Below, one piece after another: positions 21,389-49,951 of a stretch of 64,000 nucleotides of DNA. Below the pieces are notes generated by a model. It searched no databases. It was given only the letters and a program-made list of their open reading frames with translations, and had not been told where the DNA came from. Every line of letters starts with the position of its first letter. Within the stretch, counting starts at the first letter, position 1. The translations under genes were made by a program, and so were the position numbers. Location: NCBI RefSeq assembly GCF_988242995.1, contig NZ_OZ547043.1; one strand, 5' to 3'.

Positions 21389-21396
21389 AGGCGCAT

Positions 21397-21433
21397 AAAA
21401 AAGCCCGCTTTTTAAGCGGGCTTCATTGTTTTT
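21397..21433. terminator. Bidirectional intrinsic terminator between gloC and aspC
   Basis: aaaaaagcccgc-ttttta-gcgggctt hairpin flanked by A-run and T-rich tract. Confidence 0.8.
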
Positions 21434-21438
21434 AACGC

Positions 21439-22629
21439 TTACAGCACTGCCACAATCGCTTCGCACAGCGGAGCCATGTTATCTGGTGTCATCCCGGCTA
21501 CGTTCACACGACCAGAAGCAACAGCATACACGCCAAACTCTTCGCGCAGACGCAGCACTTGTTCTTTTGTCAGACCACTGAAGGAGAACATGCCGTTCTG
21601 TTTGATGATAAAGCTGAAGTCGCGGTTTGCGCCTTTTTCCTGCAGCGTATTGACGAACAACTGACGCATACGCTGAATACGCTGGCGCATATCAGTCAGC
21701 TCTTGTTCCCAAATCGCACGTAACGCATCGTTGCTCAGGATGGTGGCAACAACAGAAGCGCCGTGTGCTGGTGGGTTAGAGTAGTTAGCGCGAATCGCCG
21801 CTTTCATTTGGCTGAATGCGCGATCAACGGTTTCACTGTCAGCAGCAACCAGAGTACAAGCGCCAACACGCTCGTTGTACAGGCCAAAGTTTTTAGAGTA
21901 GGAACTGGCAACAATCAGCTCTTTATGCATAGCCGCGAAAGCGCGCAGTCCTTCAGCATCTTCTTCCAGACCACGGGCAAACCCCTGGTAAGCGAAGTCA
22001 AACAGCGGTAACCAGCCTTTCTCAACGGAAAGTTGTGCCAGTGTCTGCCATTGTTCCAGCGTAGGGTCGATACCGGTTGGGTTATGGCAGCAGCCATGGA
22101 ACAGCACTACGTCGCCAGCCTGAGCTTCGTTCAGGCTGTTAATCAGTGCATCGAAGTCAAGGGTGTGATTTTCCGCATCATAATAAGCGTATTCACGAAC
22201 TTCCAGACCTGCAGAGTTAAAGACGCTCTTATGGTTCGGCCAGCTTGGGTTGCTCACCCACACACGCTTAACGCTGGTATTTTTTGCCAGGAAATCGGCA
22301 GCCACGCGTAGTGCGCCAGTGCCACCCGGAGTCTGTGCCGTGCGAGCACGTTTGTCATTGATCAGGGCGCTACCTTTACCAAACAGCAGTTCCTGAGTGC
22401 AGCGACCAAATTCAGGGATGCCGTCAATGCCGAGGTAATTTTTGGTGGTTTCATTTTCGAGCAGATACTGTTCAGCTTTTTTCACGCTGGTCAGTACCGG
22501 GGTTTTGCCCGTCTCATCTTTATAGACACCAATCCCGAGGTTAATTTTGCCGGGACGTTCATCGGCACGAAACAGATCGGCCAGGCCCAGAATCGGGTCG
22601 GCAGGAGCGGCGGTAATGTTCTCAAACAT
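21439..22629 (-). CDS. aspC: Aspartate aminotransferase AspC
   Basis: 396 aa; PLP-lysine region [14 protein letters not shown]. Confidence 0.97.
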
Positions 22630-22757: not shown

Positions 22758-22788
22758 TAAAAAAAACAGGACCAAAGTCCTGTTTTTT
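22758..22788 (-). terminator. Rho-independent terminator of ompF
   Basis: acaggac-caaa-gtcctgt hairpin with flanking A/T runs, 25 bp past the ompF stop. Confidence 0.8.
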
Positions 22789-22813: not shown

Positions 22814-23887
22814 TTAGAACTGGTAAACGATACCCACAGCTACGGTGTCGTCAGAACCTACGCCCAGTTTGTTGTCAGAATCGATCTGGTTGATGATGTA
22901 GTCAACATAGGTGGACATGTTTTTGTTGAAGTAGTAGGTTGCGCCCACTTCAAAGTAGTTCACCAGATCAACATCACCGATACCTTCTACGTCTTTCGCT
23001 TTAGATTTGGTGTAAGCGATGGACGGACGCAGACCGAAATCGAACTGGTATTGCGCAACTAACAGAACGTCTTGCGTTTTGTTGGCGAAGCCGCCTTCAA
23101 TTGGCGTAGCGTTACGGGTTTCACCGTAGTTCGCTGCCAGGTAGATGTTGTTCGCGTCATACTTCAGACCAGTTGCCCACTGTTCAGCTTTTTTACCCTG
23201 ACCGCGGAATTCGGCTTCCTGGGCGTCGGTACGGTCTGCTGCACCGTAAGCACCTACGATACCAAAGCCTTCGAATTCGTAGCTGATAGAGCCACCGACG
23301 CCGTCGCCGTTGGAACGCTCAGGAATACCAGCACGTTCGTTTTTGCCCAGGTACTGAACGGCAAAGTTCAGGCCGTCAACCAGACCGAAGAAGTTGGAGT
23401 TACGATAGGTAGCAACGCCGCCTACACGACCAACGAAGAAGTCATCGCTGTATGCCGTGTCACCGCCAAACTCAGGCAGCATATCGGTGTAACCCAGTGC
23501 GTCGTAAACCACACCGTAGTTACGACCGTAGTCGATAGAACCCGCATCAGCGAATTTCAGACCTGCGAATGCCAGACGAGTTTTGTTACCTTTCTGGGCA
23601 TCAGCGCCTTCAGAGTTGTTACCCTGGAAGTTATATTCCCACTGACCGTAGCCGGTCAGATCGGAATTGATTTGTGTTTCCCCTTTAAAACCAAGACGGG
23701 CATAAGTTTTGTCGCCGTTTCCGCCGTAACTGTTTACACCATTGTCTTTAGAAAAATAATGCAGACCGACAGCTTTACCGTACAGATCTACTTTGTTGCC
23801 ATCTTTGTTATAGATTTCTGCAGCGTTTGCAGTACCTGCTACTAACAGAGCAGGGACGATCACTGCCAGAATATTGCGCTTCATCAT
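22814..23887 (-). CDS. ompF: Outer membrane porin OmpF (loop-variant allele)
   Basis: 357 aa; signal peptide [23 protein letters not shown]-terminal ...VAVGIVYQF; barrel core matches OmpF, loop segments differ from K-12 as recalled. Confidence 0.95.
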
Positions 23888-24034
23888 TATTTATTACCCT
23901 CATGGTTTTTTTTATGACACCTGCCACTGCCGTCAATAAGTTCTGTCAATAAAAATTTACGGAACTATTGATGAGAGTTTGGTGTCTTTATGTGTCTGCA
24001 GGCATCTTTCCATTCAAACTAACGTTTCGCTACC

Positions 24035-24100
24035 GTGAAAGTGCTACAAAGATAAAGATTTGGTTTCAAAAAGAAAAAATATGTAACCAAAAGTAAAATT
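24035..24100 (-). promoter_or_regulatory. ompF promoter-proximal OmpR binding sites F1-F3
   Basis: Minus strand reads TTTACTTTTGGTTACATATTT / TTTTCTTTTTGAAACCAAATC / TTTATCTTTGTAGCACTTTCAC, the classical OmpR boxes about -100 to -40 from the ompF start. Confidence 0.8.
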
Positions 24101-24448
24101 TAAGGAACTTTGTGAACACCGTCATATTTCCATAGAAGCGTGATGATATTTACAGCAATATTTATCTATTTATATGATTTCATTATATTTAAATTAACTA
24201 AACGGAAATTTTGTTTCTGATGGAAACTTTATCGACCTGGCACTAAATCCTCGTTCAGACATCCAGAACGCCAAAAAATAGTATGAAAATTGTGCTATCA
24301 GCTAAGAAAAAACTAATCCGCAATAAGAATGCGGATTATTTTTTGTGCGCAAATGTTGCAGTGTAATATTCCGTAACAGGATGATCGTTATGGTGGGGTT
24401 GCAAATAGATTGCTTGACTTAACAAACAGATAACTTGACAGAAAGGAT

Positions 24449-24489: not shown

Positions 24490-25890
24490 TTAGAAGCTGG
24501 CGTTACGTGGAGTACGTGGGAACGGAATCACATCACGCACGTTTTGCACGCCTGTTACGTAAGCAATCAGGCGTTCAAAACCAAGACCGAAACCGGAATG
24601 CGGAACAGTACCGTAGCGACGCAGATCGCGATACCACCAGTAATCTTCTTTGTTCAGGCCCATTTCCAGCATACGCTCGTCCAGCACGTCCAGACGCTCT
24701 TCACGCTGGGAGCCACCAATGATCTCACCGATGCCCGGAGCCAGAACGTCCATAGCCGCAACGGTTTTACCGTCTTCGTTAAGGCGCATATAGAACGCTT
24801 TAATATCTTTCGGATAGTTTTTAACCACTACCGGTGCTTTAAAGTGTTCTTCCGCCAGATAACGCTCATGCTCAGAAGAGAGATCGACGCCCCAGTAAAC
24901 CGGGTTTTCAAACTTCCTGCCGCAGTTTTCGAGAATGGTCACTGCGTCGGTGTAATCCACCTGCGCGAAATCGGCCTCAATAAAGCGTTCCAGACGTGAA
25001 ACGGCATCTTTATCTACGCGTTCAGCGAAGAATTTCATGTCGTCAGCGCGTTCTTCGAGAACCGCTTTGAAGACATATTTCAGCATGGCTTCAGCCAGAC
25101 CCGCAATATCGTTCAGGTTAGCAAACGCCACTTCCGGCTCCAGCATCCAGAATTCCGCCAGGTGACGGCTGGTGTTGGAGTTTTCAGCACGGAAAGTCGG
25201 GCCGAAGGTATAAATTTTGGACAATGCGCAAGCGTAGGTTTCGCCGTTCAACTGGCCAGATACGGTCAGGAAAGACTCTTTACCAAAGAAGTCTTTGTCG
25301 AAATCCACTTTGCCCTGATCGTTACGCGGCAGGTTTTCCAGATCCAGCGTAGAAACGCGGAACATTTCGCCAGCCCCTTCGGTATCAGACGCAGTAATCA
25401 GTGGCGTTGAAACCCAGAAGAATCCCTGCTCGTTAAAGAAGCGATGCAGCGCCTGCGCCAGCGTATGGCGAACGCGCGCGACGGCACCAATCAGGTTTGT
25501 GCGCGGACGCAGGTGAGCGACTTCACGCAGATACTCAATGCTGTGGCGTTTTGCCGCCATCGGGTAAGTGTCTGGATCTTCAACCCAACCAGCAACTTCA
25601 ACCTTGCTGGCCTGAATTTCAAATTGTTGCCCCTGGCCCGGCGATGCCACGACTTTACCCGTCACAATGACCGAGCAACCGGTGGTCAGACGCAGGACGT
25701 CTTCATTGTAATTGGGCAGAGAATTATTGATGACAGCCTGTACAGGATCAAAGCAGGAACCGTCATAAACGGCGAGGAAGGAGATGCCAGCTTTTGAATC
25801 TCGGCGGGTACGTACCCATCCGCGCACGGTGACTTCGCTGTCAACGGCTACGCGGCCCTGGAGTACGTCGGCTACAGGCACAACGCTCAT
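24490..25890 (-). CDS. asnS: Asparaginyl-tRNA synthetase AsnS
   Basis: 466 aa from MSVVPVADV (track ORF has 15-codon upstream extension); class II aaRS motifs. Confidence 0.96.
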
Positions 25891-34417: not shown

Positions 34418-34553
34418 ACTCTCTCCTTATAACCAATTGTTCTTTTTTTGTTAACATTGATAGCAATTCGGTCAGTCTGACAGAGGTGGCCCGCGAGTCG
34501 AAATGATTTATCTGAGGAAGAAAAGCCAAAAAAAGCATAAAAAAAGCGCAATA

Positions 34554-34569
34554 AGAAAACGTTTGCTAT
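34554..34569. promoter_or_regulatory. Candidate PurR box in pyrD upstream region
   Basis: agaaAAACGTTTgcta contains the central AAACGTTT core of the PurR operator consensus; about 85 bp upstream of pyrD ATG. Confidence 0.4.
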
Positions 34570-48898: not shown

Positions 48899-49951
48899 TT
48901 AAGCCTGCGGCTGAGTTACAACGTCTTTGATGCCTTTAACTTCGATCTCTACGCGACGATCCGGAGCCAGGCAGTCGATCAGTGCAGCACGCTGTTTCAC
49001 GTTGTCACAGGTGTTGCCAGTAACCGGGTTGGATTCGCCCATACCACGTGCGGAGATCTTGTCTGCCGGGATACCTTTAGAGATCAGGTAATCAACAACA
49101 GACTGAGCACGGCGCTCGGACAGACCCTGGTTGTAAGCGTCAGAACCGATGCGGTCAGTGTAACCCAGAACAACTACGGAACCGTCTTTCGGATCCAGGT
49201 TGCTCAGCTGGCTGTACAGCTGATCCAGAGCAGCCTGACCTTCCGGTTTCAGGGTTGCTTTGTTGAAGGTGAACAGAACGTCAGACTTCAGAGTGAAGTG
49301 CTTGGTCTGTACTTCCGGTGCCGGAGCTGGAGCCGGAGCAACTACTGGAGCTGCTTCGCCCTGACCGAAACGGTAGGAAACACCCAAGCTCAGCATGCCG
49401 TTGTCCGGACGAGTACCGATGGTGTGTGCGTCACCGATGTTGTTGGTCCACTGGTATTCCAGACGGGTAGCGATTTCAGGAGTGATCGCGTACTCAACAC
49501 CGCCAGCGAAGACCGGAGAAACGCCGGTATCGTGGTCTTTAGTGGATGCGCCACCAGGTACGTTAGACTTGGTGTCTGCACGCCATACCATACCACCCAG
49601 ACGAGTGTAAACGTCCAGATCGTCAGTGATTGGGTAACCCAGTTTAGCGGTCAGCTGAACGCCCTGAGCTTTGTATGCGCCGTTGATGTTGTCGCCTTTG
49701 TACGGCATACGACCTAACCAGTCGTAACCCATTTCAAAGCCAACATACGGGTTAACCTGGTAACCACCAAAAGCACCTGCACCCAGTTGGTTTTCGTGGG
49801 TCGGACCATTGTTGTCGATGAAACCAGTGTCATGGTACTGGGACCAGCCCAGTTTAGCACCAGTGTACCAGGTGTTATCTTTCGGAGCGGCCTGCGCTAC
49901 GGTAGCGAAACCAGCCAGTGCCACTGCAATCGCGATAGCTGTCTTTTTCAT
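48899..49951 (-). CDS. ompA: Outer membrane protein A (loop-variant allele)
   Basis: 350 aa from [21 protein letters not shown]; 8-strand barrel, APAPAPAPE hinge, C-terminal OmpA peptidoglycan-binding domain; loops 1-3 differ from K-12 as recalled. Confidence 0.96.

Follow-up and report, generated by a model that had tools for sequence, protein, structure and literature searches.

A natural Escherichia coli OmpF allele with a divergent central block and altered surface loops

The ompF gene in a 64,000-nucleotide stretch of DNA (hereafter the window, meaning this whole stretch) most probably encodes a functional general-diffusion porin OmpF that belongs to a natural allele class already established in Escherichia coli, a reading to which we assign a probability of roughly 0.8. 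On its sequence, the gene is best described as carrying a deeply divergent recombinant block, rather than as a K-12-like gene on which loop mutations have piled up. The allele is common and already catalogued, and loop-focused, recombination-driven porin diversity is textbook knowledge. The present analysis adds four periplasmic changes, a reversed polarity for loop L6, species-level synonymous divergence within a sharply bounded block, and identity of that block across chromosomal backgrounds.

The locus was identified by its reading frame, its neighbours and protein family models. An intact open reading frame of 357 codons plus stop lies at 22814-23887 on the minus strand, flanked by asnS (24490-25890, minus) and aspC (21439-22629, minus), which is the canonical E. 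coli ompF site, and RefSeq names the identical gene ompF (protein WP_000977905.1). The translation scored 751.9 bits against the NCBIfam OmpF equivalog NF007446, above its cut-off of 583, whereas the PhoE and OmpC models gave 486 (cut-off 599) and 465 (cut-off 484), both under cut-off; the Pfam family PF00267 (Porin_1) matched with 456.9 bits. Residues 1-22 form the same signal peptide as in K-12, the mature chain begins with AEIYNK, and the C-terminus reads VYQF. The gene and its flanking elements are arranged as follows:

22814-23887, minus strand: ompF coding sequence (open reading frame list, NF007446, Porin_1 and the RefSeq annotation of the identical gene)
23822-23887, minus strand: signal peptide, codons 1-22, identical to K-12 (alignment to the K-12 precursor 3hw9 and the mature chain 1opf)
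23888-24136, minus strand: 5'UTR, core promoter and proximal upstream region, with the 249 nt before the ATG identical to K-12
24137-24445, minus strand: distal part of the upstream region (-250 to -558, counted from the ATG), which differs from K-12 by 16 substitutions
22759-22788, minus strand: terminator-like GC-rich hairpin followed by a T run, just 3' of the ompF stop (by reading of the sequence, aaaaaacaggactttggtcctgtttttttt)

We take the 249-nt identical stretch to hold the OmpR boxes F1-F3 and the micF pairing site, and the distal substitutions at -474, -463, -459 and -452 fall at about the place where we assume the OmpR site F4 (repression at high osmolarity) to be located. The charged pore-lining residues K38, R64, R104, D135, E139, and R154 (mature K16, R42, R82, D113, E117, and R132) and the PEFGGD motif are unchanged from K-12, and the same charged residues are invariant across an alignment of 46 OmpF sequences. 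Because the signal peptide, the 16-strand barrel, the constriction loop and the pore-lining residues are intact and the promoter and 5'UTR are those of K-12, basic channel function and osmoregulated expression would be expected to be kept. Loop L2, which latches onto the neighbouring subunit, carries T99K as its sole change.

End-to-end alignment with K-12 OmpF (362 aa; PDB 3hw9 and 1opf; locus L001) gave 336 identities and 20 substitutions, along with a 1-residue insertion (A186, in L4) and a gap in L6 where K-12 has six residues more (TNKFTN, mature positions 241-246). The first 47 residues and the whole C-terminal third are the same as in K-12 at the protein level. With its 20 substitutions and two indels, the allele is distinct from that of K-12, and the reading frame and alignment bear out the initial annotation, which had described an OmpF allele with a K-12-like barrel and signal peptide and 357 instead of 362 residues. 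All seven short blocks of differences that it quoted were recovered in the alignment, while Y205F (SYEFEGFG) had been overlooked. Strands and loops were mapped by DSSP on an AlphaFold2 model built from the 46-sequence alignment. The model has 16 strands and superimposed on OmpF crystal structures in Foldseek with TM values of 0.85-0.89 and an rmsd of 2.8 A; its confidence is moderate (mean pLDDT of 71, with L3 under 50), and its strand order is unambiguous and agrees with the crystal structures. The differences from K-12 map onto this framework as follows:

23717-23749, minus strand: loop L1, codons 47-57, with G48D and E51V (DSSP and alignment)
23585-23617, minus strand: loop L2, codons 91-101, with T99K (DSSP and alignment)
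23534-23554, minus strand: codons 112-118, with Y112F, V115A, and F118I, running from the periplasmic end of strand 4 through turn T2 to the start of strand 5 (DSSP)
23417-23524, minus strand: constriction loop L3, codons 122-157, including PEFGGD, with 0 amino-acid and 8 synonymous changes
23303-23350, minus strand: loop L4, codons 180-195, with 4 substitutions and the 1-residue insertion relative to K-12 NER-DTAR-RSNG
23273-23275, minus strand: codon 205, with Y205F, in strand 8 at its periplasmic end
23192-23233, minus strand: loop L5, codons 219-232, with 6 substitutions (K-12 counterpart DRTNLQEAQPLGNGKK)
23081-23113, minus strand: loop L6, codons 259-269, a short form with 2 substitutions and 6 residues fewer (K-12 counterpart PITNKFTNTSGFANKT)

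The outer loops L1, L2, L4, L5, and L6 take 15 of the 20 substitutions and both indels. Over codons 40-265, the scope of the enrichment test, substitutions affected 15 of 58 loop codons versus 5 of 167 codons elsewhere (Fisher OR 11.3, p = 1.7e-6). The proposed confinement to surface loops therefore holds for these 15 substitutions and both indels but fails for the remainder: M60K lies just past L1 on the outer rim of strand 2, and the conservative changes Y112F, V115A, F118I, and Y205F are located at periplasmic strand ends and turns. Y112F, V115A, and F118I are placed on the periplasmic side because they precede L3 in the strand order, where DSSP assigns a strand at 102-112, a turn at 113-115 and a strand at 116-121. 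In L1, the K47-G48-N49 motif becomes K-D-N. The absence of amino-acid changes in L3 upholds the conservation of PEFGGD that had been noted earlier. The window protein thus shares with K-12 OmpF (P02931; PDB 2OMF, 1OPF, and 3HW9) its locus, fold, promoter and leader, signal peptide, loops L3, L7, and L8, and pore-lining residues.

At the DNA level, the divergence from K-12, which the initial annotation had viewed in protein terms alone, is concentrated in a single segment of the gene:

23093-23770, minus strand: divergent central block, codons 40-265, about 680 bp, with 85 nucleotide differences from K-12

The whole gene shows 51 synonymous and 20 nonsynonymous codon differences from K-12, and the block holds 49 of the former and all 20 of the latter. 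Nucleotide differences amount to 0 of 117 at the gene start, 85 of 673 aligned positions in the central block, and 2 of 281 at the gene end, with flanks of ompF that are about 1% divergent; the identity of the block to K-12-type DNA is 87.5-87.6%. By the Nei-Gojobori method, the block differs from K-12 with dS of 0.51 and dN of 0.054, and dS outside it is 0 and 0.03 at the two gene ends. Over the same codons, dS was 0.53 between K-12 and E. albertii and 0.32 between K-12 and NZ_JAATUR010000002.1 (L074), a GTDB species representative labelled E. coli SCPM-O-B-8794. With 0.51 so close to the K-12/E. albertii value, the block has the age of a split between species. Its divergence has several peaks, reaching 13-22% near L1, L2/T2, L4, and L5 and falling to 4-7% in the valleys. 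Synonymous differences across all block codons were spread evenly between loops and the rest (p = 0.27), and a weak excess near loops was obtained by counting only same-amino-acid codons (OR 2.3, p = 0.04). As a signature of balancing selection, the synonymous excess at loops was set aside, being marginal at best.

Pairwise dN/dS (Nei-Gojobori) was 0.16 for the outer loops, where dS of about 1.15 is near saturation, and 0.04 for the rest of the block; for single loops it was at most 0.38. In this comparison of the window with K-12 no region had dN/dS above 1, and the ratio was dropped as evidence of positive selection. The barrel value of 0.04 indicates strong purifying selection, and the raised dN of the loops could arise from weak constraint alone. 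Selection through phage and colicin receptor use, to which the initial annotation had attributed the loop differences, is plausible, yet the pairwise ratios for loops and barrel do not speak for it.

The ancestral state at variable positions was judged with 40 non-Escherichia OmpFs as outgroups. At position 48, the window residue D occurs in 22/40 outgroups and the K-12 residue G in 2/40; at position 60, K occurs in 16/40 and M in 0/40; at position 112, F in 34/40 and Y in 4/40; at position 115, A in 31/40 and V in 0/40; at position 205, F in 23/40 and Y in 0/40; and at position 222, A in 33/40 and L in 0/40. For L6, the earlier description of a shortened loop is correct relative to K-12 but misleading as to direction. 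The short form is found in 24/46 aligned enterobacterial OmpFs, as well as in E. albertii and L074 (PIKGGF and PITGGF), and the 9-residue K-12 form in 7/46. Given this wide distribution, the apparent deletion more likely reflects extra residues gained, or another long loop taken up, on the K-12 side, whose long L6 is the minority state. The L1, L4, and L5 sequences of the window are absent from E. albertii and L074, both of which are K-12-like in those loops.

Genes at least 99% identical to the window ompF were found in 484 of 5,426 complete E. coli genomes (about 9%). The identity of the block alone is bimodal, with 486 E. coli records at 99% or more, 12 at 90-99%, and 4,924 at 80-90%, and the identical protein is the lead sequence of a database cluster with 544 members. 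WP_000977905.1 is identical in NY1601, 50579417, an O102:H6 strain, and Z226-7. Among the matches listed, the complete genomes closest to the window are 99.0-99.4% identical over 24 kb, and the window itself contains no marker for phylogroup or sequence-type typing. The block shows 0-1 differences per 676 nt among carriers, while their flanks differ from those of the window by 0.3-1% in 50579417, the O102:H6 strain, and E597 and by 1.2-2.2% in Z226-7, which is as far as the flanks of K-12. Strain 67-1 (WP_000977907.1) is a partial recombinant that has only the L1 block (D48, V51, and K60) on a K-12-type gene. An identical block on differing flanks, together with partial recombinants, indicates that the block moves between chromosomes, and evidently spreads, by homologous recombination.

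Comparison with natural ompF alleles, which had been suggested at the outset, yielded a match: the window allele is "OmpF Variant 10 (n=5)" of Camprubi-Font et al. (2019; Front Microbiol 10:1707, PMC6691688, Suppl. Table 5). All 30 tabulated positions agree, namely D48, V51, K60, K99, F112, A115, I118, A-G-I-P-E at 186-190, F205, D221, A222, E226, F227, R228, Q230, E/G, and the six residues deleted in L6, and there is no difference between Variant 10 and the window protein. The variant was found in 5 of 58 strains and, by phylogroup (Table 6), in 1/7 of A, 2/24 of B2, and 1/5 of D, and Variant 8 of the same study matches the strain 67-1 recombinant (PMC6691688). In that work, Variant 10 figured as a set of substitutions that were tested for a link to adhesion and invasion, without synonymous divergence, polarity, or recombination, which are considered here.

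These distributions bear on the suggestion that the allele is a sequencing or assembly artefact or a decaying pseudogene. Two carriers, elppa9 and E597, do have frameshifted copies, as such decay would predict, but the reading frame in the window is intact, the identical sequence recurs in hundreds of independent complete genomes, the barrel is under the strong purifying selection described above, and the allele was independently Sanger-sequenced in 2019 (PMC6691688). The suggestion is refuted on these grounds, and we regard its probability as negligible.

Apart from this question, the frameshifted ompF pseudogenes in elppa9 (L090) and E597 (L093) were recorded in two clinical or veterinary carriers. 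Loss of OmpF is known in drug-resistant isolates, and the two pseudogenes are consistent with it.

The source of the variant loops was considered next to the porin paralogs. Gene conversion from ompC, phoE, nmpC, or ompN would find a precedent in the porin chimeras present in the databases, and we assume that the RTDAQ motif and F at position 112 are found in K-12 OmpC too, which would count in its favour. However, secondary matches of the gene in E. coli genomes are limited to short stretches of conserved sequence (such as 52 bp in ompC), the E. coli paralog loci L063 and L065 (60% protein identity) lie outside the best 25 nucleotide matches to the block, the PhoE and OmpC scores are far under the OmpF score, and the synonymous differences run through OmpF-specific segments. 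Conversion from a paralog was therefore rejected as very improbable. As to the chimeras themselves, P0009 joins an OmpC N-terminus to window-type OmpF, whereas P0084 and P0097 have a PhoE/NmpC-like N-terminus on K-12-type OmpF; all three are either real inter-paralog recombinants or assembly artefacts.

A search for a donor listed at least 80 species-representative loci, of which K-12-type E. coli came nearest to the block (87.6%); a donor could exist in E. fergusonii, E. marmotae, E. ruysiae, or E. whittamii, which lie beyond these loci. Among the loci listed, the block of the window is 86.3% identical to L074 (dS 0.66) and 84.7% identical to E. albertii (dS 0.84), and a database of 5.8 billion proteins held no separate protein cluster with the L4 and L5 motifs. 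These results are relevant to a neutral introgression, by which the block would have been imported once from an unsampled divergent Escherichia-like lineage, the loop differences would reflect weak constraint, and no receptor advantage would be involved. Such an origin would agree with dN/dS below 1 everywhere, with block dS at about the between-species level, with a block that does not vary from carrier to carrier and so points to one recent source, and with D48, K60, F112, A115, F205, A222, and the short L6 being ancestral or family-consensus states. It is harder to reconcile with the failure of the locus and protein searches to reveal a donor, with the multi-peaked loop divergence, where a single imported tract would be uniform, and with the spread of the block to about 9% of genomes and to three phylogroups or more. 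Weighing both sides, we consider neutral introgression credible yet unlikely.

The loop-centred divergence peaks, the two deep classes with few intermediates, and the occurrence in several phylogroups are compatible with balancing or frequency-dependent selection and, equally, with introgression followed by neutral spread. We tentatively propose, with considerable doubt, that the two ompF classes might be a long-lived balanced polymorphism that either predates E. coli or was rescued from an Escherichia lineage now extinct or outside present sampling, and that they may be held at about 9:91 by negative frequency-dependent selection from OmpF-docking phages and bacteriocins. The K-12 type (long L6, M60, Y112, V115, and Y205) would then be an innovation, and the window type would be nearer to the ancestral surface.

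Several phages, colicins, and microcins, as well as beta-lactams, use OmpF as their receptor or route of entry. Resistance to phage K20 maps to its loops L5, L6, and L7, and T-even-like phages use OmpF via Gp38 adhesins, Bas47 being OmpF-dependent. Colicin N binds the extracellular surface of OmpF with its globular domain and the lumen with its N-terminus, and the colicin N paper gives no contacts at the level of loops. According to reviews, susceptibility to microcin PDI is linked to the L1 motif K47-G48-N49 (PMC7680869); the window has K47-D48-N49 at these positions. G48D alters this motif, and an effect on susceptibility itself is a testable hypothesis. CdiA-EC536 accepts the OmpF of K-12, strain 536, Salmonella, and Enterobacter (PMC5056734), a tolerance which implies that some OmpF ligands are indifferent to differences in the loops. 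Our search of the literature found no report in which the window allele was tried against phages, colicins, or microcins.

The divergent block would present an altered extracellular face to agents that dock on the loops, such as T-even-like and K20-type phages, the receptor domain of colicin N, and microcin PDI, and would probably make a strain more or less susceptible to certain of these agents. No effect is expected on agents whose binding is limited to the conserved lumen, for example the threading N-termini of group A colicins. The simplest explanation for two deep classes, one at about 9% and the other at about 91% with few intermediates, would be that such loop-docking agents favour the rarer surface type. 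The surface type of a strain's OmpF may help to predict phage-therapy host range and bacteriocin sensitivity, which is of modest practical value. About 1 in 11 complete E. coli genomes has a non-K-12 surface, and nearly all structural and receptor work has been done on the K-12 protein. Concrete and cheaply testable hypotheses follow from G48D, within the motif for microcin PDI, and from the strong differences in L4, L5, and L6.

The allele also fits what has been described for porin diversity in general. In the preprint by Chen et al. (bioRxiv 10.1101/2021.09.21.461324), ompF is described as mosaic, with hypervariable regions in the loops recombined into about five major protein groups, with HVR4 and HVR5 (L5 and L6) tied to phage K20 binding, and with gain or loss of residues near L6. 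The window allele agrees with this mosaic pattern in its loop-localised blocks, in the occurrence of the same block in unrelated backgrounds, and in the partial recombinants. That work is mainly at the protein level, whereas dS, the bimodality in 5,426 genomes, and the cross-background identity of the block come from the present analysis. OmpC offers a parallel, with modular loops in many combinations and alleles recombined between lineages (Beck et al., 2016, PMC5056734; Patino-Navarrete et al., 2020, PMC6970295). Its loop polymorphism was shown to affect CdiA recognition (PMC5056734), and contact-dependent inhibition (CDI), phages, and carbapenems form the context of selection (PMC5056734, PMC6970295). 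OmpC is far more polymorphic than OmpF, with more than 220 sequences, and effects of its alleles have been shown, whereas those of OmpF are inferred.

Several further observations were made in the window and among the genomes compared with it. The chaperone-usher fimbrial operon elfADCG-ycbUVF, which measures 7,093 bp in the closest relative NY1601, is missing between ssuE and pyrD, and about 75 bp are found in its place (window 34480-34554). Of the 25 matches listed, NZ_OZ547136.1 alone is colinear with the window at ssuE-pyrD. The identity to NY1601 is 99.99% to the left of this junction and 98.9% to the right, a drop that suggests a recombination boundary. The window also has an ompA allele with loop variants (48899-49951, minus strand; 350 aa), which makes it a second polymorphic outer-membrane phage receptor in the window; taking K-12 OmpA to be 346 aa, we judged this allele to be of a non-K-12 type. 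L074 has an ompF of 356 aa with 3-8% DNA divergence from K-12 and an overall dS of 0.27, and it probably belongs to a cryptic Escherichia clade. In the aspC-gloC intergenic region, at about 21391-21418, K-12 is longer by about 172 bp, the short form being common to NY1601 and other carriers, and the extra sequence in K-12 is probably a repetitive extragenic element.
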